The position numbers and the translations under genes are program-made. Shown here piece after piece: positions 2,782 to 42,292 of a stretch of DNA of 42,292 bases. The stretch lies in the sequence record NC_041897.1; one strand, written 5' to 3'. The DNA comes from Escherichia phage K1ind1. Each line of letters opens with the position of its first letter. The stretch's first letter is position 1. The notes under the pieces are model-generated. The model searched no databases. It was not told the origin of the DNA and saw only the letters and a program-made list of their open reading frames with translations.

Positions 2782-3858
2782 ATGCTATTAACTTTAGCGC
2801 CACAGGGTTTATCTATGAGCTTACTTACATCGCTAATCAGCCACCAGATATGGCTGCAACGCACCGCATCCGGCGAAGTGAAAGACCTCGCGCCGTTCAT
2901 TAAGGAAATGCGGGACGAAATCAAACGGCAGGTGCTGCTATTCGGTGACGACGGGCGTAGCACCGCGCGACTGAATAAACTGTTACGCGACCTGGAAGAA
3001 GCACTGGCAGGACTTACAGGTGACTGGCGAACAAAGCTGACAGAAGACCTTAAGGAACTGGCAGCGTATGAGGCGGAGTGGAACGTAAAAACGCTGACGA
3101 CTAACGTCAACGCGGAATTTGTTACACCTACCGCCGAACAGGTGTGGGCCGCTGCCGAGTTTCAGCCCTTATCGTTAAGCTACAAACCTGTTGATTTCAC
3201 TAAGCTGATGTCAGGCTGGGGTGAAACCGAAGTCGCGCGCCTGGTAACGGGTGTTAAGATGGGCTTTGTACAAGGTCAAACCACGCGGCAGATTGTTAAG
3301 AATGTTGTTGGTGCCGGTGGGCTAACTGACATATCTGAGCGCACCGCGGCTACCGTCATCCGCACCGCGCTGTCTCACGTGTCCAACGAAGCCCGTAACG
3401 AGACGTACCGCCAGAACGACGACATCATCGAGAAGTACGAGTGGGTGTCAACGCTTGACAGCCGCACCAGTACGATTTGCAGGGTCAGAGACGGAATGAC
3501 GTGGAGAATCGGTAAAGGTCCGATGCCCCCCGCCCATCCTAACTGTCGAAGTACCACGGCCCCTGTAATCAGTTCCGAGTTCGACTTCCTCGATAAAGGC
3601 GCAAAACGCGCGGCTAAAGGCGCATACGGCGGTACTCAGGTAAGCGCGGACACCACTTATTACGAGTTCCTGAAACAACAGCCTGCATGGTTTCAGGACC
3701 AGGCGCTCGGCCCTGTTCGCGGTAAGATTTTCCGTAACAGCGGTATATCGCCGGAAGAGTTTCGCGTAATATCTGTAGATGGTTTCGGGAATCCGCTCAC
3801 GCTTAAACAGATGGCGGAACTCGATAAACGTGTTGCTGATTATCTGAAAGGGGATTAA
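2782..3858 (+). CDS. head morphogenesis / minor head protein (Mu F / SPP1 gp7-like position)
   Basis: 358 aa ORF following portal; assignment by synteny and size, not by a recognised motif. Confidence 0.5.
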   Translation: MLLTLAPQGLSMSLLTSLISHQIWLQRTASGEVKDLAPFIKEMRDEIKRQVLLFGDDGRSTARLNKLLRDLEEALAGLTGDWRTKLTEDLKELAAYEAEWNVKTLTTNVNAEFVTPTAEQVWAAAEFQPLSLSYKPVDFTKLMSGWGETEVARLVTGVKMGFVQGQTTRQIVKNVVGAGGLTDISERTAATVIRTALSHVSNEARNETYRQNDDIIEKYEWVSTLDSRTSTICRVRDGMTWRIGKGPMPPAHPNCRSTTAPVISSEFDFLDKGAKRAAKGAYGGTQVSADTTYYEFLKQQPAWFQDQALGPVRGKIFRNSGISPEEFRVISVDGFGNPLTLKQMAELDKRVADYLKGD

Positions 3859-4319
3859 TGATGGGCTTTTTCAAAGTAACTGATGTACCGTCACGTCGCG
3901 TAGTCCAGTACGCCCGCGTGTCTGGCTCTGGTGAGAACGTGGTGTTTATTGATGATGAAAGTGTACTCGGTACACCCGAAGACGATATGCCGTTTGCAGA
4001 TAAAACCGGTATTGCGTTACCCGCGGCGGGCATGCTTTATGAAATTCCGTATCTGGCGGATGCAGGTGACGTGTATTTCTCGGTGCAACCGAAAGACACC
4101 GAGCTGGTCGACGGTAGCGCCACCATCACCGTCGAAGTTAAGGCGGGTAAAGCGCCGTGTGTACTGACCTGGTACAAAGACGGCAAGGAAGTGGTAAACG
4201 CCCCAGAAGAGGCTTTGTCTCTGACGGTTAATGCTGTCGGTGAATACTTCGTTAAAGTCACCGATGCCGATGGGGTAGAGGCCGTCAGTAAAGCGGCGAA
4301 GGTTACTAAGCCAGAATAA
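3858..4319 (+). CDS. Ig-like (Big_2-type) domain protein, possible capsid decoration
   Basis: 153 aa; C-terminal beta-rich segment with TWYKDGKEV motif typical of phage Ig-like domains; start overlaps upstream stop (TAATG). Confidence 0.5.
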   Translation: MMGFFKVTDVPSRRVVQYARVSGSGENVVFIDDESVLGTPEDDMPFADKTGIALPAAGMLYEIPYLADAGDVYFSVQPKDTELVDGSATITVEVKAGKAPCVLTWYKDGKEVVNAPEEALSLTVNAVGEYFVKVTDADGVEAVSKAAKVTKPE

Positions 4320-4323
4320 ACTG

Positions 4324-4345
4324 AAGCCCCGAAAGGGGCTTTTTA
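4324..4345 (+). terminator. rho-independent terminator
   Basis: AGCCCC-GAAA-GGGGCT hairpin followed by TTTTT. Confidence 0.6.
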
Positions 4346-4614
4346 GTGCCTGTGATTATTCCAGTTATTCCACTCAATTGTAAATGTTGGAATAAACTAT
4401 TCGAATAGTCGACTTTTCACCAAAAATGTGCTAAGCTCCACCTGAGCTTGTGAAGTATGAACAAGCGACCGCGGCGCGGCAGGTAACGGAGCCGGACGTT
4501 AAGTCCGAGTGTAGTTACGCTGACGCGTTCGGAAGGGCCATACTCTATTGCTTGTGTAAAAAGTAACTGGTTTACTGAGATTACGCCGTTTCTATGTTTA
4601 AATGATAAGTACTA

Positions 4615-4641
4615 GCGCCCCGCTTTAAGGCGGGGCTTTAC
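4615..4641 (+). terminator. terminator-like hairpin
   Basis: GCCCCGC-TTTAAG-GCGGGGC stem-loop followed by TTT; ends a 300-bp non-coding stretch. Confidence 0.45.
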
Positions 4642-4660
4642 TTATCGAGAAAGGGGAAAC

Positions 4661-5238: not shown

Positions 5239-5940
5239 ATGAATCGTTTTTTACATTATCCGTTCCAGGAAGAAGCTGGGGCAGAAGATAAAGCCGGTGG
5301 CGGTGATGCGCCGAAAATGTTCACCGCGGAAGAAGTTCAGGCGCTGATTGAGAAAGAAGTTGCCGGGCTTAAGGCCAATCAGGAAGCATTACTGGCGGAG
5401 AAGAAAGAAGCCGCCCGTAAAGCAAGAGAGGCCGAAGAAGAACGGCAGCGCGCGCACCAGGAGGCGTTAAAAGCCGCTGGTAAGATGGACGAGTTCGAAA
5501 AGACGATTCGTAGCCAGTATGACCCGGTGTTAGCCGAGAAAGATGGTCGCATCTCTAAAATGGCAGAGCGCATCCTCGGTAGCGAACGTAAAGCGGTGTT
5601 AGGCTCTTTCGCAGGTGACTTTATTACCCCGGAAGCAGTGGACATTCTTGCACCGTTCGTTAAGACTGAGTTCGAAGGCGATGATGTGGTTACTAAGTTT
5701 GTCGGCGCAGATGGCAACGTAATCACGACTGACCCGGAACAGTTCCGCAAATACCTGCGCGAACACAAAGCGTTTTCGCATTTGATTAAAGCAAATGCAG
5801 CTTCCGGCGGCGGGGCTTCCGGTGGCAAAGGCGGCGGGGCCGCACCAGCGTTTAAAGACATGAGTGAAGCGGAGCGTTTAGCTCTGTATAAATCGAACCC
5901 TGCCGAATTTGAACGGCAACTTAAAGCCCTGAGGAAATAA
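5239..5940 (+). CDS. capsid scaffolding protein
   Basis: about 233 aa from ATG 5239; highly charged, A/E/K-rich coiled-coil; immediately upstream of major capsid gene; ORF-track start 5185 is a TTG inside a promoter-like region. Confidence 0.55.
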   Translation: MNRFLHYPFQEEAGAEDKAGGGDAPKMFTAEEVQALIEKEVAGLKANQEALLAEKKEAARKAREAEEERQRAHQEALKAAGKMDEFEKTIRSQYDPVLAEKDGRISKMAERILGSERKAVLGSFAGDFITPEAVDILAPFVKTEFEGDDVVTKFVGADGNVITTDPEQFRKYLREHKAFSHLIKANAASGGGASGGKGGGAAPAFKDMSEAERLALYKSNPAEFERQLKALRK

Positions 5941-5942
5941 TA

Positions 5943-6992
5943 ATGGCAATTACCACTATCGGCGATATCGTAACTGGCAACATCCCGGTCCTGGCGTCTT
6001 ATATGACCGAGGACCCGGTGGAAAAAACCGCGTTCTTCCAGTCCGGTATTCTGACCCCGACTCCGTACGCCGCAGAGATTGCTCGTGGTCCGTCCAACAT
6101 CGCCAACATTCCTTTCTGGAAAGCGATTGATACTTCTATCGAGCCTAATTACTCGAACGACGTATATCAGGACATCGCTACCCAGCGTAATGTGCAAACC
6201 GGTGAGATGATGGCCCGCGTTGCGTACCTGAACGAAGGTTTTGGCCAGGCGGACCTGACTGTCGAACTGACCAGCCAGAACCCGTTGCAATCTGTTGCCT
6301 CTCGTCTGGATAACTTCTGGCAGCGTCAGGCACAGCGCCGTCTGATTGCCACCGCCCTCGGCATCTACAACGACAACGTGTCCGCAACCGACGCGTACCA
6401 CGAACAGAACGACATGGTAATCGACGTGTCTGCAACTCTTGGCTTCGATTCCGGTGCGTTTATCGACGCCACCCAGACTATGGGTGACGCTCTGATGGGT
6501 AATGGTGGCGAAGTGCTGGGCGCAATCGCGATGCACAGCTTCGTATACGCACAGGCACGTAAGCAGCAGCTTATCGACTTCATCCGTGATGCCGACAACA
6601 ACACCATGTTTGCCACCTACCAGGGCTACCGCGTGATTGTTGACGACAGCATGACCGTAGTAGGTACTGGCTCCAGCCGTAAGTTCATCTCCATCATCTT
6701 CGGCAACGGCGCTATTGGTTATGGTGAAGGCAATCCGTCCAATCCGCTGGAATACGAGCGCGAAGCGTCCCGCGGCAACGGCGGTGGCGTCGAAACCTTG
6801 TGGACCCGTAAGACCTGGTTGCTGCATCCGCTGGGCTACAGCTTCACCAGCACAGTAATCACTGGTAACGGTACTGAAACCGTAGCCCGCTCTGCTTCCT
6901 GGCAGGACCTGGCGAACGCCTCCAACTGGAACCGCGTTGTTGACCGTAAGCATGTACCGATTGCCTTCCTGGTAACTGGTGTAGGTGCTTAA
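5943..6992 (+). CDS. major capsid protein
   Basis: 349 aa; follows scaffold; strong codon bias; followed by strong terminator. Confidence 0.7.
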   Translation: MAITTIGDIVTGNIPVLASYMTEDPVEKTAFFQSGILTPTPYAAEIARGPSNIANIPFWKAIDTSIEPNYSNDVYQDIATQRNVQTGEMMARVAYLNEGFGQADLTVELTSQNPLQSVASRLDNFWQRQAQRRLIATALGIYNDNVSATDAYHEQNDMVIDVSATLGFDSGAFIDATQTMGDALMGNGGEVLGAIAMHSFVYAQARKQQLIDFIRDADNNTMFATYQGYRVIVDDSMTVVGTGSSRKFISIIFGNGAIGYGEGNPSNPLEYEREASRGNGGGVETLWTRKTWLLHPLGYSFTSTVITGNGTETVARSASWQDLANASNWNRVVDRKHVPIAFLVTGVGA

Positions 6993-7007
6993 GGTTAAGT
7001 TATAATC

Positions 7008-7032
7008 GAGAGGGACTTCGGTCCCTCTTTTC
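7008..7032 (+). terminator. rho-independent terminator
   Basis: GAGGGAC-TTCG-GTCCCTC hairpin followed by TTTTCATTT. Confidence 0.65.
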
Positions 7033-7051
7033 ATTTACTAAGAGGTAAATT

Positions 7052-9769: not shown

Positions 9770-10182
9770 TGGGCTACTTTGAGGACTTAACGAAAGCGTT
9801 TGATGCGCCGCTGGTAGCCTTCGGAACCGCCAACGGCATCAAGGTCGCGCTTGAAAATATCGACGCGCCGACGTCAACCGATACGCCGTATCTGGCAAGT
9901 TATATGTTGCTGGCGGATACGGAACAGGCGGATTTGTTCTTCACGGAACAACGCGCGGGTGTTTATCAGGTCGACATTAACTACGCATCGGTGAAAGGTA
10001 GCGCGCCGATCAATAAAATGGCAGACTTACTTAACACGGCGTTTAAAGCAGGTAAGTCATTTTCACGTAACGACATCTGCGCCGTTGTGAATGAGGTTAG
10101 CCTGGGGCCGCTGATTGTAGAAAACGGATGGGCCAAACGACCATTGTCAATTAACTTTATTGCATTCACCAAGAGGCTGTGA
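9766..10182 (+). CDS. tail terminator-like protein
   Basis: 138 aa; immediately upstream of major tail gene. Confidence 0.4.
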   Translation: MMGYFEDLTKAFDAPLVAFGTANGIKVALENIDAPTSTDTPYLASYMLLADTEQADLFFTEQRAGVYQVDINYASVKGSAPINKMADLLNTAFKAGKSFSRNDICAVVNEVSLGPLIVENGWAKRPLSINFIAFTKRL

Positions 10183-10184
10183 AT

Positions 10185-11351
10185 ATGGCTACAACTCCTT
10201 TTAAGGGCGCGAATACTGCGCAATTCTATGTGGCAGAAACTACCCCGGGCGTAACACCGACTAACCCGGTCTGGTCGCCATTGCGTAACACAGGTGGCGT
10301 TCCTGCCATTACCCGCGACACGCTGACCTCCAACGAACTGGACGGCAGCCGTGAAACTACGTCAATCCGCACCGGTAACAAGCAGGTTAGCGGAGAATAC
10401 GCTATTGAGCTTAGCTCGAAAAGCCAGGACGACTGGCTGGCGGGTGCTTTAGGCTCTACATGGCAATCCGGTAGTTCTCTGACCGGGCTATCAATTACCG
10501 TCGCGCCTGCAGGCAAGACCTTTACCCGTGCCGAAGGTAGCTTTATTTCTGACGGCGTTGAAGTGGGCGACCTGATTGCGTTTACCGACTTAACCGGTGA
10601 CAACGCAAAACCGTTTATCGTAACTGCAGTAGAGGCACTGGTAGTGACCGGGGCGGGTATCCAGCATACCCTGACCACAGAGACAGTAACTACCGCCGCT
10701 AAGACAGGGGATAAACTGGAAACGGGAAGCCAGTGCAAGACGTTCTCTATTCTCACCTGGTACAAAGGCCAGTGCGGCGGGACTGACGCGTACACACTAA
10801 CCAAAGGCGTGGAAGTTTCTGGTTTTACCATCGAACAGGCTGTTAACGCTATGGTAACTGGCAGCTTCCCGTTCATCGGTCGCAGTCAGGAGATTCTCAC
10901 CACGCAGCCGTCTGGTTCTGATTTCTCCTCTGTTACGTTTGGTGACGAGCCGTTCTCCTCGGTCGATGTTTCTGTGTTCGACGGTTCTACGCCGTTGCGT
11001 TGCGACAGCCTGACCATCACCAACGACAACAGCGCGTCCGCACAGTTCGAACTCGGCAACACTAACGTAGCGTTTGTGGAGCGTAGCCGAGCAGCTAACA
11101 CCTTCTCCATCTCCGGTAAGCTGTACGACATGGCGATGATTCAGAAGTTTATCAACGAGCAGCAGGTGGAGATTAACTCTATTCTGGCGGGGGTAAACGG
11201 GGCTATGTCTTTCAGCTTGAAACGTGCAGAACTTACCGCGGTTACACCTGAGATTGGCGGGCCTGAGTCAATCACTCAGTCCATCGAAGGCCAGGCTACT
11301 GGTAACCAGTACCAGTCGTCTATTGTTATTCAGCGCATCACCTACGCATAA
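10185..11351 (+). CDS. major tail protein
   Basis: about 388 aa from ATG 10185 (AAGAGG RBS); T/S/G-rich; precedes chaperone/tape-measure genes; followed by strong terminator. Confidence 0.55.
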   Translation: MATTPFKGANTAQFYVAETTPGVTPTNPVWSPLRNTGGVPAITRDTLTSNELDGSRETTSIRTGNKQVSGEYAIELSSKSQDDWLAGALGSTWQSGSSLTGLSITVAPAGKTFTRAEGSFISDGVEVGDLIAFTDLTGDNAKPFIVTAVEALVVTGAGIQHTLTTETVTTAAKTGDKLETGSQCKTFSILTWYKGQCGGTDAYTLTKGVEVSGFTIEQAVNAMVTGSFPFIGRSQEILTTQPSGSDFSSVTFGDEPFSSVDVSVFDGSTPLRCDSLTITNDNSASAQFELGNTNVAFVERSRAANTFSISGKLYDMAMIQKFINEQQVEINSILAGVNGAMSFSLKRAELTAVTPEIGGPESITQSIEGQATGNQYQSSIVIQRITYA

Positions 11352-11355
11352 AACT

Positions 11356-11380
11356 AAGGCCCCTTTCGGGGCCTTTTTCT
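11356..11380. terminator. bidirectional rho-independent terminator
   Basis: AGGCCCC-TTTC-GGGGCCT hairpin flanked by T-run on plus strand and TTAGTTTT on minus strand; separates major tail gene from convergent island. Confidence 0.6.
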
Positions 11381-11934
11381 TACAAACCTAATATTAAAGC
11401 AATACCTATAGCGTTCGATTTAACGTAACCCGGTATGATGTAGGTGTCATAATCTTTTACACCATCAATATCGTACAGGTAACCGCGGCTGTCCCCTTCA
11501 AACGTATGGCCGTCTCTGTGCAAGCGGACGATTCTCACATCATGCCCTGCGGCAACGATAGGGGCTACTTCGCTGGCGAACCCGCCATCAGACACCACAA
11601 AAACTTCGTCGCCGTCGGGCAAGTTTCCGGCAAGATACTTACCGAAATAATCATCACCGAATACCGGTTTAATGAATTGCTCGGAAATGGCAATCATGAG
11701 CTGACGCCGAGACAACCCGTTAAGGAAACCCTCTGGCTTTTCTTTCCGCGCCCGGTCGTCGTAGCCGTCGAGAAACTCGCGGTAAGCATCCTGGCCTAAC
11801 GCAGCCATAGCAATATTGAACATCGGATTCTTGAAACTGGCGACACCCTTCGCAAAGCCCATTTCTACCAGCGCCCTAGCAAGTGTGTCTTTCCCGCAGC
11901 CCGCAGGACCATTAAGAATAATTACCTTAGCCAT
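11380..11934 (-). CDS. P-loop nucleotide/polynucleotide kinase (dNMP-kinase-like)
   Basis: 184 aa; Walker A GPAGCGKDT near N-terminus; small alpha/beta kinase size; last gene of leftward island. Confidence 0.6.
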   Translation of the reverse strand: MAKVIILNGPAGCGKDTLARALVEMGFAKGVASFKNPMFNIAMAALGQDAYREFLDGYDDRARKEKPEGFLNGLSRRQLMIAISEQFIKPVFGDDYFGKYLAGNLPDGDEVFVVSDGGFASEVAPIVAAGHDVRIVRLHRDGHTFEGDSRGYLYDIDGVKDYDTYIIPGYVKSNAIGIALILGL

Positions 11935-12419
11935 TATTTATCACTCCCATGTGGTTTTAAGTGTGTAGAGTTCCCGTTACAGTCGTATTCAGTAACTGCG
12001 TGAGTGGTTATGCCGAGTTCGCGGAAATGCTTTATTACCGCTGGAGAGTCGTCGAATGCACACAAGATTCTCTCCGGCCCAATAGCACGCAACACCTCTT
12101 CTTTAATTACGATGTCTTTTCTGTTGTCGTGTTTGCTGCGCATGATTAACTGATAAAATTCGACGCGGTGGCGCTGCAACCACATTCTGGTTTCTTTTTC
12201 CGCGTCATCACTACGGCCTGTTAAGATAATAACGGCATAGCGACGATTAAGGGCGTTACACAGTTCGATGTTATCTTTAATGGGTGCATCGTCTTTGCAC
12301 GCCATGTTAAATGGTTTCCACGCCCAGGTTTCGCCGTAGTTATCTTTCGGCAGCAGGTGTAAACGATGAGTACCATCTGCCAATGTCCCGTCTAAATCGA
12401 AAATCACAATATCTTTCAT
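11934..12419 (-). CDS. HAD-superfamily phosphatase
   Basis: 161 aa; HAD motif I FDLDGTL, motif II ILTGR, motif IV FDDS; start overlaps upstream stop (ATGA). Confidence 0.65.
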   Translation of the reverse strand: MKDIVIFDLDGTLADGTHRLHLLPKDNYGETWAWKPFNMACKDDAPIKDNIELCNALNRRYAVIILTGRSDDAEKETRMWLQRHRVEFYQLIMRSKHDNRKDIVIKEEVLRAIGPERILCAFDDSPAVIKHFRELGITTHAVTEYDCNGNSTHLKPHGSDK

Positions 12420-13546
12420 CCAAGCATCTCCGGTGAAATAGTTAAACGTGCGACCTCGCCATATTCGGCGCTATAAGTAATTACGTTTGCACTGCGGCCC
12501 GACATCCACCCACCGCGGGAGGCATATGCATCTTTAGCCGCGAGAGTGCGGTGTTGCTCAACAATCATGTTACGGCTTTCTACAATCTTTTGGTGGTGCA
12601 GGTGACCCACGTGGGCGTAGCTGTAAACACTCTCGCCGAACGCTTTGCGGAACTTGGCGATCATAACCGGTTCGATAGCGTCGAATCGTGCTTTATGCCC
12701 ATGATGGAAGAACAGCGTCGTTTTGCCGTGTTGCACCATCTTGTAAACATCCGGCGACGTATCGACGAACACACGCGGCTCATTGTCGTACAGCGTACTA
12801 AACATCTCAGCTAACCAAATCATTCCGCTTTCGTCGTGGTTACCTTGCACAATAAGCAAGCGAACATTTTTATGCTTAACAAGGGCCATATCAACGACAC
12901 GGCGGACCATACGAATCATGTAGCGGACCAGTTTCTGATAGCGCGTGTCCGCATCGAGAACATGACCACTTGCCGGTGTAACGGCGTCCAGGCTATCGAA
13001 GTGCGCAAGGTCGCCGAGCAGATTAATAACTCCTGTTCCTGCATCCGGCGCTTTCTGAAACGCGGCATCGAACCAACGAGAGAACAGGTCTTCCGCGATT
13101 TTCATATCCCAGTCGTCGCCGCTCTCGTCAGCCCATGCCAGCATACCGAGGTGAAAATCAGATACCGTGTAAAGATTGAGTAGCTTGCCGTCGCGTTTGG
13201 CGCGTGCTGCTTTAACAGGGGCGACTGGCGTAATCTCTGATTTCATTCCTTCGATTACGGCTTTCATCAACTCGACCTGACGTTCAGCATCGGTGTCTGT
13301 CTTAACCCATTGCAACTTAGTGTTGCCGAACTCGTCCACCAGCGACGACGTTCCTTTAATCTTGTAGCCGTCCGGCACAAGGTGACTAACGTCGCGCCCG
13401 TGGCCTACGCCTTTCTTAGCCAGCTTCGCTTTACGGATACGGATAACGCGGTCAGAGATGCCGTATTTACGAGCTATATCGATATTCTTCATCCCGGCGT
13501 TCAATTCTTCCTGCAACTGTTCGTCGGTTATTTTCTTCTGGGCCAT
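12416..13546 (-). CDS. HTH domain fused to calcineurin-like metallophosphoesterase
   Basis: 376 aa; N-terminal HTH (NIDIARKYGISDRVIRIRKAKL); metallophosphoesterase motifs SDFHLG, GDLAHFD, GNHDE, HHGH, GHLHH; GAGGAAG RBS. Confidence 0.65.
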   Translation of the reverse strand: MAQKKITDEQLQEELNAGMKNIDIARKYGISDRVIRIRKAKLAKKGVGHGRDVSHLVPDGYKIKGTSSLVDEFGNTKLQWVKTDTDAERQVELMKAVIEGMKSEITPVAPVKAARAKRDGKLLNLYTVSDFHLGMLAWADESGDDWDMKIAEDLFSRWFDAAFQKAPDAGTGVINLLGDLAHFDSLDAVTPASGHVLDADTRYQKLVRYMIRMVRRVVDMALVKHKNVRLLIVQGNHDESGMIWLAEMFSTLYDNEPRVFVDTSPDVYKMVQHGKTTLFFHHGHKARFDAIEPVMIAKFRKAFGESVYSYAHVGHLHHQKIVESRNMIVEQHRTLAAKDAYASRGGWMSGRSANVITYSAEYGEVARLTISPEMLG

Positions 13547-13584
13547 ACTTACTTCCTCGTGTTTAGGATTTGTCCTATACTAGC

Positions 13585-13776
13585 TCACTTCTCGTTAACA
13601 TTCGAGTTGCACGCCCAGATTAAAATAAAGACCCACGGCAGCAGCGCCCAGCCAAGAAACAGATTAGCCATGAATATCGCTAACTTCGCTTTATGGTTAC
13701 GGAAGTACGCAACCAGGAAAGGCGCAAAATAAACGAGAAGTGCAAACAGAATTAAGGAAACTGGTAAACTTGACAT
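13585..13776 (-). CDS. small membrane protein, superinfection-immunity (Imm) family-like
   Basis: 63 aa from second ATG (GGAGG RBS); two hydrophobic helices flanking RNHKAKLAIF...GWALLPW, a pattern resembling the Imm superinfection family. Confidence 0.5.
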   Translation of the reverse strand: MSSLPVSLILFALLVYFAPFLVAYFRNHKAKLAIFMANLFLGWALLPWVFILIWACNSNVNEK

Positions 13777-13806
13777 TTTAAATCCCTCCATTGTTGGTGT
13801 AAGTGA

Positions 13807-13835
13807 ATAGTACCCTATTATATTGGGGTGTGCAA
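13807..13835 (-). promoter_or_regulatory. sigma70-like promoter TTGCAC-17-TACTAT with embedded AATAG-N4-CTATT palindrome (13806-13819)
   Basis: minus-strand reading CTTGCACACCCCAATATAATAGGGTACTATTCAC is nearly identical to the plus-strand cassette at 35342; lies about 30 nt upstream of the Imm-like gene. Confidence 0.5.
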
Positions 13836-13943
13836 GTAATGTGATAGAATAATTTTGCGCCTAGTGTCGCACACGAAAAGCGGATGGTTACCGTCTGGCG
13901 CATTTATCGTTAACCTGTAACCTCTTAACCAAAGGATTAAAGA

Positions 13944-14360
13944 ATGAAACTTTCTGATTTTTATTTCGAAGAGAAAGCACTGGCGGGCAAGAAGATGCCG
14001 ATTTTGCTGCCGAATGGTGAAGACTCCGGCGAGTGGCTTAATGTCGTAAATCCTGATGCGGATGCCGCCGTTAAAGCGGGGCGTGCTTTCATTATTGCGT
14101 ACCGCCGCGGGCTGGCACGTTTTGAAGAACTGGAAAAAGCTGCCAAAGACTCTGGTGATTATACTGAATATAATCTGGCGGTTAACGAACTGGCGGAAGA
14201 CCTAAACCGGCAACTCGCGGCAGAAGTCGTAAACGGCTGGAGCTTTGATGAGCCTTTCTCTAAGGAAGCGTTTAACAAATTGCTCGACCAGTTCAAAGCA
14301 TTAGGCACACAGGTAGCTGCGTTTCATAACGCTGAGCGCAAAGCATTACAGGAAAAGTAG
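13944..14360 (+). CDS. tail assembly chaperone (gpG-like)
   Basis: 138 aa acidic protein immediately upstream of tape measure; classic position. Confidence 0.55.
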   Translation: MKLSDFYFEEKALAGKKMPILLPNGEDSGEWLNVVNPDADAAVKAGRAFIIAYRRGLARFEELEKAAKDSGDYTEYNLAVNELAEDLNRQLAAEVVNGWSFDEPFSKEAFNKLLDQFKALGTQVAAFHNAERKALQEK

Positions 14361-34970: not shown

Positions 34971-35343
34971 ACATAATCGCACCTATTGACATTATGGAAA
35001 TCTTCGTTTAAGGTGCTTCTGTATCTTAGTTACTTTGATTCTTGTTCACCTTGTAAAACCCGCCGAAAACGAGCGCCCAACGCGAAGTGTTAGGCGGCAG
35101 TTTACTGAACATTCGAATTATCGTAACTTTCCTTCCTAAGTATCTCCGGTTGCCATGGGCAAGCTCTATTCCCATCGGCGGAATATATCTTAAGTATCTG
35201 ATTTTCTTAAAGTGCCGTAGATTCGCAACCGTAAAAATGTAACGATTATTGGGCAGGCTTAGGGCCTGCCCTTTAGTTACCAAGTAATAAGAATAAAGGC
35301 ACAACCCTACCTGAAGAATCACAACGGCAACGTAACTAATCTC

Positions 35344-35372
35344 TTGCACACCCCAACATAATAGGATACTAT
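35344..35372 (+). promoter_or_regulatory. sigma70-like promoter TTGCAC-17-TACTAT with AATAG-N4-CTATT palindrome (35360-35373)
   Basis: conserved cassette CTTGCACACCCCAACATAATAGGATACTATTCAC; GAGGAG RBS and ATG 35407 downstream. Confidence 0.5.
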
Positions 35373-35406
35373 TCACTTATCGAAACGAGACAGAGGAGTG
35401 AGGGTT

Positions 35407-35589
35407 ATGTTTAAGAATGGTCAGTTGGTGAAAACAAAGCGCAGCCGGCAACACGTAATAGTTACCAAAGACGAGGATGAATATGGTGTTGTCGCCGTAT
35501 TTAGCCTTATACGGAGGAAACATGGTTATGTTCGTCACGATAATTTAGAACTCATCGGCAACAATTTTAAATTCAAAGGGGCGAAGTGA
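35407..35589 (+). CDS. hypothetical early protein
   Basis: 60 aa from ATG 35407; first gene after promoter. Confidence 0.4.
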   Translation: MFKNGQLVKTKRSRQHVIVTKDEDEYGVVAVFSLIRRKHGYVRHDNLELIGNNFKFKGAK

Positions 35590-36852: not shown

Positions 36853-36881
36853 TTGCACACTAAGATAGAATAGGCTACTAT
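36853..36881 (+). promoter_or_regulatory. sigma70-like promoter TTGCAC-17-TACTAT with AATAG-N4-CTATT palindrome (36869-36882)
   Basis: second plus-strand copy of conserved cassette; GAGGAGAG RBS and ATG 36913 downstream. Confidence 0.5.
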
Positions 36882-41750: not shown

Positions 41751-42292
41751 ATGAAGCTGAAACTCAAGCAGCCATCGCCAGAGGTGGTGCAAGCTGCACA
41801 TGAAGAAGCTGTTAGCGCAAACCGCCGACGTAAACGACCGCGCGGTAAACAGAGCCTTTATCAATCGTCCCGTAATTCCGCAGCGTTGTGGGACCCGGAC
41901 TATTGCGACGCGTTAATCGAGTTCTTCGACCGCACGTCATGGGAACTGGTGCCTACATCTAAGGGTGACGAACGCCCACTGATTCAGGATAAACCGCCGT
42001 CACTGGCCCGCTTTGCCTTACACATCGGCGTCACTATCCCTATTATTAAGCTATGGCTGCGTGAGATTCCAGCATTCGCAGAAGCCTGGGAGACCGCACA
42101 GGCACTGGAAGAGGCATACTTCACTGAGACCGGGGCCGCGGGCATCTCGGCTACATTTGCTGCCGCTAAGCTGAGCCTCGGCAAAGAGAAACCAGTTGAA
42201 TCCACCGAAGAAACGGTACCGACCGAGATTATTTTTAGTGTTGCAGAGCCTGTAGGTAAAATTGTAACAACGAATATGGGTGAGGTAGAGGA
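41751..42292 (+). CDS. terS: terminase small subunit (3' end runs off the window; closes onto position 1-4 if the molecule is circular)
   Basis: ORF open to the window edge with AAGGGGA RBS; position directly upstream of terL; at least 180 codons; the ORF was absent from the track because no stop lies inside the window. Confidence 0.55.
   Translation, partial: MKLKLKQPSPEVVQAAHEEAVSANRRRKRPRGKQSLYQSSRNSAALWDPDYCDALIEFFDRTSWELVPTSKGDERPLIQDKPPSLARFALHIGVTIPIIKLWLREIPAFAEAWETAQALEEAYFTETGAAGISATFAAAKLSLGKEKPVESTEETVPTEIIFSVAEPVGKIVTTNMGEVE

Follow-up and report, generated by a model that had tools for sequence, protein, structure and literature searches.

A stretch of 42,292 nucleotides from Escherichia phage K1ind1 (NC_041897.1), analysed at its full length and referred to here as the window, carries an island of four leftward genes between the rightward genes of the tail tube and of the tail assembly chaperone. 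Positions 11300-13950 are 98.7% identical to the corresponding region of the Escherichia phages K1ind2/K1ind3, and 297 phage records match them, mostly from Kagunavirus and Salmonella Jerseyvirus (Guernseyvirinae); by sequence similarity, the source phage is assigned to Kagunavirus (subfamily Guernseyvirinae). In the K1ind2 map, structural genes run rightward and replication genes leftward, and since no integrase or repressor is annotated in this near-identical genome, the phage that carries the island appears to be virulent. A sequence-only reading of the window had described four coupled leftward genes between the major tail and chaperone genes, bracketed by a promoter and a bidirectional terminator; all the features that it described are confirmed, in place or shifted by a few bases. 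The island is probably one leftward unit, a moron-type cassette of three exchangeable modules, lodged at the tube-chaperone junction of Guernseyvirinae, a hot spot of recombination. The locus comprises the following features, in which HTH stands for helix-turn-helix and MPE for metallophosphoesterase.

10179-11351, plus strand: tail-tube (major tail) gene, left flank of the island (PF18906, E 5.4e-41)
11356-11380, both strands: bidirectional intrinsic terminator, with a stem-loop at 11356-11375, AAGGCCCC-TTTC-GGGGCCTT, and T-runs on both strands
11380-11934, minus strand: P-loop kinase gene, last gene of the island (184 aa)
11934-12419, minus strand: HAD phosphatase gene (161 aa)
12416-13546, minus strand: HTH-MPE gene (376 aa)
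13585-13791, minus strand: Imm gene, first gene of the island (likely true start at ATG 13776, 63 aa)
13803-13836, minus strand: island promoter, with TTGCAC at 13835-13830, a 17-nt spacer, TACTAT at 13812-13807 and a conserved TCACTTAC initial transcribed region
13944-14360, plus strand: tail assembly chaperone gene, right flank of the island (PF08748, E 8e-6; K1ind2 annotation)

The open reading frames (ORFs) and their overlaps are read as the sequence-only reading gave them. The MPE stop overlaps the HAD start (plus-strand TCAT at 12416-12419, that is ATGA on the minus strand), and the HAD stop and the kinase start share base 11934 (TAATG, 11932-11936). The K1ind2 counterparts of the four genes are labelled "ATP-binding protein", "polynucleotide kinase", "DNA repair exonuclease" and "immunity to superinfection". 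Family, motif and fold evidence, detailed below, agrees with the Imm-like, HTH-metallophosphoesterase, HAD phosphatase and P-loop kinase identities proposed from the letters of the sequence. Scans with NCBIfam return nothing informative for the island proteins, PADLOC matches no defence or anti-defence model in any of the four, and Rfam and tRNA scans of the window report no match.

Comparison of the slot among relatives carries the main argument. Eighty related loci were fetched through their tail-tube protein (65-100% identity), and both flanking genes were located in 75 of them. Across these 75 loci, the tube-to-chaperone interval extends from 93 bp to 3141 bp. The slot is empty in eight (tube-chaperone distance 93-184 bp), where it holds only a hairpin and the chaperone ribosome-binding site, and contains a single small gene in twelve others. 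The MPE is present in 39 slots, an Imm homologue in 27, the HAD and kinase genes in 12, and all four genes together in 7; among the 297 matching phage records, the full set occurs in 49. The same four genes are therefore not found at this position in all relatives, whose slots are instead empty or otherwise filled. Nearly all cargo ORFs lie on the minus strand and follow a common order: the promoter-proximal position is taken by Imm or another envelope protein, the middle one by the MPE, and the distal one by the HAD and kinase pair or by a 76-aa protein (phrog_2452), an HNH endonuclease or an Ant/Rha protein (the cargo including a Rha/KilAC anti-repressor-like protein). A signal-peptide protein (phrog_14165) and a lipoprotein complete the list of other cargo. 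The slot of locus L038 is reduced to the terminator, a 58-aa Imm gene and a TTGCGC-17-TATATT promoter, and in relatives at 75-76% tube identity the same terminator is accompanied by just a single small gene for a membrane protein.

In pairwise alignments, the exchange points fall at gene boundaries. The HAD and kinase genes (window 11383/11396 to 12409-12416) are exchanged for the 76-aa gene, with the joint precisely at the stop codon of the MPE. Where Imm is exchanged for the signal-peptide gene, the stretch concerned is delimited by the ribosome-binding site of the MPE (13578-13590) and the final promoter base (13802/13803). Every Kagunavirus locus (L009-L037) has the promoter in this position, irrespective of the gene that follows. 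Given these swap points and a promoter conserved whatever the cargo, the alignments describe the unit as three exchangeable modules held within fixed promoter and terminator flanks.

On its left side, the island ends at a hairpin which, folded as minus-strand RNA, reaches -21.7 kcal/mol (z -3.36), with none of 200 shuffles folding as well. The stem-loop is detected on both strands, in agreement with the bidirectional terminator proposed earlier at 11356-11380, and is predicted to close the tail-tube transcript arriving from the left and the island transcript arriving from the right. This hairpin, directly after the tube-gene stop, is kept in relatives carrying any cargo, and the comparison suggests that it may act as a recombination joint. 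Additional copies of the terminator hairpin occur at internal junctions between cargo modules in L012, L033 and L042, and a terminator also follows the major tail gene of phage T1.

Structurally, the island fits the definition of a moron given by Juhala and Hendrix, as supported by its own promoter and terminator, both predicted, and by its position between two genes that are adjacent in relatives; the moron proposed by the sequence-only reading thus stands for its position, its terminator and, at the level of the sequence, its promoter. Base composition gives a mixed picture, as Imm (43.8% GC) and HAD (45.1%) differ from the kinase (49.7%) and the MPE (51.5%), the genome being at 51.3%. The further element of that definition, expression from a repressed prophage to the benefit of the lysogen, probably does not apply, since no integrase or repressor is annotated in K1ind2, and any expression of the island would belong to lytic growth. 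The moron reading is right in kind but not new, as it was published in 2014 for this very slot in Serratia phage eta, whose gene 60, with a promoter and a terminator to itself, was termed a "potential moron" by its authors (Denyes et al. 2014, PMC3918226).

The accessory character does not extend evenly over the four genes. As evidence against a recently acquired cassette, each of the 26 loci with a tube protein of 89% identity or more has the MPE in the slot, Jerseyviruses have it there too, and the GC content of the MPE gene equals that of the genome (51.5% versus 51.3%). The unit might then be an old, conserved DNA-metabolism operon of the Kagunavirus-Jerseyvirus lineage residing inside the tail module, in which only Imm and the HAD-kinase pair are optional, and the empty slots of distant relatives would be ancestral in other lineages or else result from secondary loss. 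The conserved promoter and terminator flanks and the occurrence of the MPE family in 2042 phage records, usually amid replication and recombination genes, are consistent with such an operon. It is nonetheless a rather unlikely account: the MPE sits elsewhere in the genome in Bas84, L047 and L077, the relatives at 75-76% tube identity have the single small membrane-protein gene together with the same terminator, and the MPE gene is itself a mosaic. Two MPE alleles exist, of ~55% protein identity, with a near-identical N-terminal third. In Ent1-type relatives (L025, L042, L006), DNA likeness to the window spans the promoter, Imm and the N-terminal HTH and linker, and ends at ~13091-13241; their MPE catalytic domain (window 12416-13090) is far more divergent than the 5' third of the gene (~13091-13546). 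In the moron-type cassette that we prefer, the MPE would behave more as a mobile core gene than as cargo, and the truly optional parts, judged by these comparisons, are Imm and the HAD-kinase pair. The accessory cassette of the sequence-only reading consequently holds for Imm and for HAD-kinase, but not for the MPE as recent cargo, with its presence in 26 of 26 close relatives, its genome-like GC content and its distribution over ~2000 phage genomes.

On its right side, the island starts at a promoter of which the sequence-only reading had noted an almost identical plus-strand copy near 35342. The copy exists as a 34-mer twin, and exact TTGCAC-N17-TACTAT hexamers occur at a third place, 36853, absent from the earlier list.

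35343-35376, plus strand: sister promoter in the divergent control region, before a run of small ORFs (34-mer twin)
36853-36881, plus strand: third promoter of the same class, before a second small-ORF run leading into the lysis genes (hexamers identical, spacer and initial transcribed region partly conserved)

The 34-mers 13803-13836 (minus strand) and 35343-35376 (plus strand) share 32 of 34 bases, and with 2 mismatches allowed, no match is returned in 100 shuffles. The three copies resemble one another only from about -36 to +10. Several observations qualify the reading of this class as sigma-70 or early promoters. Of the 12 hexamer positions, TTGCAC/TACTAT has only 7 in common with the sigma-70 consensus; an alternative overlapping reading, ATCACA-17-TATAAT at 13845-13817, exists for the island copy only; and a similar TTACAC-N17-TATTAT site lies at 42018, near the start of the packaging genes. 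The slot of the Jerseyvirus SETP7 has a good promoter, TTGCAT-17-TATTAT, whose spacer is unrelated to that of the window promoter (7 of 17 positions alike) and for which no second copy was found elsewhere in the SETP7 genome at up to 6 mismatches in 30 bases. In the only RNA-seq study of a Kagunavirus, vB_Eco_K1B4, the Imm gene lies outside the four early genes and peaks after 100 min, in the latest-peaking class, with DNA polymerase and methylase genes.

These data bear on whether the island is instead constitutive or late, the shared promoter reflecting strong sigma-70 promoters of recent common origin and not a temporal class. The late peak in K1B4, the packaging-side site at 42018, by which the promoter type separates gene classes imperfectly, and the unrepeated SETP7 promoter all suit this possibility. 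K1B4 was sampled at 5, 15 and 30 min and then from 50 to 120 min for a latent period of 30 min, and the late points include secondary infections, a sampling too coarse to separate early from late. Meanwhile, both sister promoters, one of them in the divergent control region, precede runs of small ORFs (60-170 aa, of unknown function) in a non-structural region. The prototype of the Imm family, T4 imm, is reported to be an early gene (Lu and Henning 1989). In T1 (L094, 4948-6534), HAD (gp64) and kinase (gp62) are neighbours, split by the HNH homing endonuclease gene gp63, in the left-end small-ORF region, which we take to be the early region of that phage. In phage eta, a repeat of 19 bp occurs four times and was described as "possibly involved in regulation" (PMC3918226); the eta record shows one copy at the promoter of gene 60 and two ahead of genes in the recombination region, which ties the slot to non-structural genes. 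Late or constitutive expression thus appears doubtful, though with a better claim than the old operon, and early expression of the island, judged from the position of its promoter copies, is plausible.

Between the island promoter and the chaperone start (13836-13943), no convincing promoter was found that could serve the chaperone gene in the rightward direction. With a strong terminator after the tube gene, the chaperone and later tail genes would need read-through of this terminator and 2.5 kb of transcription antisense to the island. The authors of the eta study annotated a rightward promoter at the equivalent place. The first ORF behind the 35343 promoter (35398-35589, plus strand, 63 aa, phrog_12538) is homologous to the 67-74-aa slot gene of L053-L055 (33% identity, E 7.7e-5). 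Comparison of the two regions suggests gene traffic between the small-ORF region and the tube/chaperone slot.

The promoter-proximal product matches PF14373 Imm_superinfect (E 2.4e-13; 50.1 bits for a curated gathering cut-off of 27.9) and phrog_1039 (E 2e-23), and its two predicted transmembrane segments describe a small inner-membrane protein. Translation probably starts at the second ATG, 13776, and not at 13791, because the former has a GGAGG Shine-Dalgarno sequence ahead and K1ind2 annotates the matching short form, giving a protein of 63 aa. By analogy with T4 Imm and HK97 gp15, this protein most likely blocks DNA entry by secondary phages. Among the four island genes, it is the only one with a clear host-interaction role, its exclusion activity being predicted from its family. 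The counter-defence function that the sequence-only reading suggested for the island is conjectural.

The HTH-MPE comprises an N-terminal helix-turn-helix (~residues 4-45), a linker and a binuclear metallophosphoesterase domain (~residues 120-376). All motifs of the binuclear superfamily (DxH / GD / GNH(D/E) / H / GHxH) are present, in the Mre11/SbcD-like forms SDFHLG, GDLAHFD, GNHD, HHGH and GHLHH, and residues D130, H132, G178, D179, N236, H237, H282, G314 and H317 are invariant in 97 diverse homologues (31-48% identity). The protein matches phrog_704 (E 1e-167) and gives weak Metallophos matches in Pfam; the scan of the 97 family members likewise reports generic Metallophos matches only and no dedicated model. 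The family counts 4632 representatives at 50% identity, and its genes usually stand among those for replication and recombination; in the literature on T1-like or Jersey-like phages, no described function was found for it. Searches of the PDB with phmmer and with a profile return no significant match, the MPE domain reaching only SbcD/Mre11 and the "Nuclease MPE" 6nvo at E 0.3-0.8. Assignment to the Mre11/SbcD nucleases is not supported, with E 0.29-0.85 for the T. maritima SbcD/Mre11 profile and a probability of 3% against E. coli SbcD in hhalign. No SbcC-like ATPase gene is annotated in K1ind2. Comparison of the window MPE family with Bxb1 gp47 by hhalign gives a probability of 5%. The structure model, built on a shallow alignment (homologues 89-99% identical), has a pLDDT of 44 and was kept out of the fold search; its HTH part reaches 78-86, the remainder being unreliable. 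The sub-threshold values for every subfamily (PDB profiles E 0.3-0.8, hhalign 3-5%) and the failed model weigh against a close functional assignment within the superfamily. The protein is most likely an Mn-dependent nuclease or phosphodiesterase that would be brought to DNA by the HTH domain.

An HTH domain could also make the protein mainly a transcription factor, sigma region-4-like or LuxR-like, serving the conserved promoter class, with the phosphoesterase activity secondary. The N-terminal domain does weakly match GerE/LuxR and sigma-70 region 4, and the MPE gene stands behind one of the three conserved promoters. Bxb1 gp47, an MPE which is presumably the recombination directionality factor of that phage, would then be a precedent for a non-catalytic second role of a phage MPE, although the Bxb1 record itself labels the neighbouring gp46 as this factor. 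Such a regulator is nevertheless very unlikely on the sequence comparisons, as the metal-binding and catalytic residues are invariant in the 97 homologues, the SETP7 MPE is 89% identical to that of the window while its promoter spacer is unrelated (7/17), and the HTH type varies within the family (Fis, LysR, sigma-70 region 4, GerE, HTH_50) around a constant MPE domain.

The HAD protein matches PF25109 HAD_PNKP (E 6.7e-20) and phrog_415 (E 8e-67), and exhibits the nucleophile motif FDLDGTLAD (DxDGT type). Its sequence matches in the PDB are the phosphatase domains of Pnkp1 (4xrp, 1.7e-6) and of T4 Pnk (1ltq, 1.8e-4), together with 5uj0, and it is accordingly predicted to be a phosphatase of the polynucleotide kinase-phosphatase type. 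The kinase matches phrog_139 (E 5.8e-46) and carries the Walker A sequence GPAGCGKDT (GxxGxGKD P-loop). Its fold matches the T4 gp1 deoxynucleoside monophosphate (dNMP) kinase, phosphomevalonate and adenylate kinases being related folds, and both fold and P-loop predict a small-molecule kinase of the T4 gp1 type. The two genes do not amount to a T4-type Pnkp, as no Pnk-type P-loop 5'-kinase domain is fused to the phosphatase; with a gp1-type kinase on a separate polypeptide, the pair is neither a Pnkp nor a known operon partner of gp1. No described function was found in the literature for the HAD-kinase pair in T1-like or Jersey-like phages, and no match was returned for the 76-aa protein that replaces it as a fusion to P-loop homologues elsewhere.

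The MPE, HAD and kinase genes recur in the same order in two other settings, the Klebsiella phage Roth09 (Webervirus), where they immediately precede the holin gene, and the SP6-like Erwinia phage Era103, between endonuclease VII and DNA ligase; in T1, the MPE is located apart from the HAD and kinase genes. The same order in otherwise unrelated genomes argues that the three proteins work together. Tentatively, and with no more weight than late expression of the island, they could form one conserved, horizontally mobile three-enzyme pathway with an undescribed early function, shared by at least three unrelated lineages (Kagunavirus, Webervirus/Drexlerviridae and Era103/Autographiviridae). If so, the pathway might carry out a DNA-targeted demolition of the host chromosome with nucleotide recycling, which would also silence host defence genes, or alternatively the healing of nuclease-damaged phage nucleic acid.

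The second option corresponds to a nucleic-acid end-healing (repair) module, that is, a split polynucleotide kinase-phosphatase, in which the MPE would remove 2',3'-cyclic or blocked ends and the HAD protein 3'-phosphates, the kinase would phosphorylate 5'-OH ends, and a phage or host ligase would seal them, thereby countering host nucleases such as anticodon nucleases or DNA-nicking effectors. The HAD protein is indeed closest to polynucleotide end-healing enzymes, its best family and PDB matches being the phosphatase domains of Pnkp1 and T4 Pnkp, and the genomic context points in the same direction: the trio adjoins an ATP-dependent DNA ligase gene in Era103, the MPE directly follows the gp30 ligase gene in Campylobacter phage CPX, and in Vibrio phage K122 a 3'-phosphatase gene lies near the MPE gene. 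Taken with the ligase neighbours of the MPE in Era103 and CPX, this relationship of the HAD protein weighs against salvage as the preferred role, repair fitting equally well. However, no ligase is encoded in the island or next to it in the window, the ligase of Era103 carries an annotation of similarity to SP6 gp24 and would probably belong to the SP6-like backbone and not to the cassette, and the empty PADLOC scan of the four proteins gives no known link to anti-defence. The end-healing module as such is unlikely, somewhat more so than the old operon. What speaks for salvage is the gp1-like fold of the kinase and the precedent of a mycobacteriophage MPE, Gp48 of A10ZJ24 (cluster A), an early protein with phosphodiesterase and nuclease activity that breaks down the DNA of the host and that the phage requires to replicate its own DNA in certain hosts, M. 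tuberculosis among them (PMC12287305). The published Gp48 alignment takes in the Bxb1 MPE, annotated gp47 (PMC12287305). Between the Pnkp-type phosphatase with its ligase neighbours on one side and these two arguments on the other, salvage with host-DNA breakdown is ranked above end-healing, with low confidence.

In the preferred reading of a moron-type cassette, module A would be the promoter-proximal envelope protein, here a two-helix inner-membrane protein of the Imm family; module B the long-resident HTH-metallophosphoesterase; and module C a more recently swapped pair of a PNKP-type 3'-phosphatase and a T4 gp1-like dNMP kinase. Soon after injection, host sigma-70 RNA polymerase would fire the island promoter together with its two sisters. 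Imm would then seal the infected cell against superinfection, while the three enzymes may break down or trim nucleic acid and return nucleotides to the synthesis of deoxynucleoside triphosphates. Later, transcription of the tail genes would cross the island rightward, in antisense, and might damp it.

Much of this was known already, since the genes are annotated in GenBank and a moron at this slot has been published, and no new kind of system is described here. The remaining novelty lies in the widespread, uncharacterised HTH-MPE family and in the recurrent three-gene association, and the HTH-metallophosphoesterase with its recurrent phosphatase and kinase partners is a tractable target for biochemistry. 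Kagunaviruses are therapeutic candidates against K1 and urinary-tract E. coli, and they also provide a chassis for synthetic biology. For such uses, the slot is a natural, self-insulated expression site (promoter, cargo, terminator) that tolerates 0 to 3 kb, an obvious place for a payload, and it houses predicted exclusion genes that would affect the compatibility of phages in a cocktail.

Elsewhere in the window, a 342-bp gene-free gap lies at 4320-4660 between a Hoc-like head gene and the spanin gene. The head gene is immediately followed by a hairpin (4324-4341), and the gap further contains a leftward promoter-like site (4384-4355, 10/12, with TG) and a second terminator (4617-4636); in sequence, it resembles a second moron slot that is either empty or vestigial. 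The other moron of phage eta (gene 45) is found at the corresponding junction. In SETP7 (L089), a single leftward amidase gene (3320-3973, minus strand) lies between the rightward portal and head-morphogenesis genes, a junction of 37 bp in the window. A 551-aa ORF (5379-7034, minus strand) on the strand opposite the scaffold and major capsid genes most likely owes its length to chance.

Compared with known systems, the closest counterpart of the island is gene 60 of phage eta. Both lie between homologous major tail (59 in eta) and chaperone (61) genes, with bidirectional terminators after the tail gene, leftward orientation, their own promoter and a promoter-adjacent repeat that recurs in the recombination region of eta. 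In contrast, eta has a single 111-aa gene of unknown function and a different repeat, ATTGCAACTTATTTGTTTA, where the window has four genes, three of them for enzymes, and eta forms unstable lysogens, whereas in K1ind2, the near-twin of the window, no integrase or repressor is annotated. Regarding the enzymes, the HAD protein resembles the phosphatase domain of T4 Pnkp and the kinase resembles T4 gp1 in its fold and GKD P-loop; the two activities reside on separate polypeptides, unlike those of T4 Pnkp, and the kinase is of the gp1 and not of the Pnk type. The window MPE shares with Gp48 of A10ZJ24 its phage origin and all conserved motifs, but Gp48 has ~255 aa and no HTH, and the likeness is found at the superfamily level only. 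The Imm protein matches the T4 Imm family (PF14373) above the cut-off and is likewise small with two hydrophobic segments, although it is siphovirus-encoded and of 63-68 aa, compared with 83 aa for the T4 protein (PMC9409062). Lastly, gene 15 of phage HK97, the founding moron, is inserted within the tail operon, adjacent to the gene of the chaperone, and its product is an exclusion protein of the inner membrane (PMC3594210, reviewing Juhala et al. 2000 and Cumby et al. 2012). HK97 gp15 is YebO-like and not Imm-like, is expressed from the prophage and stands as a single gene devoid of enzymes; as proposed for the window, it is an independent transcription unit beside the tail chaperone gene and provides a small inner-membrane protein, which in HK97 blocks DNA entry by superinfecting phages.

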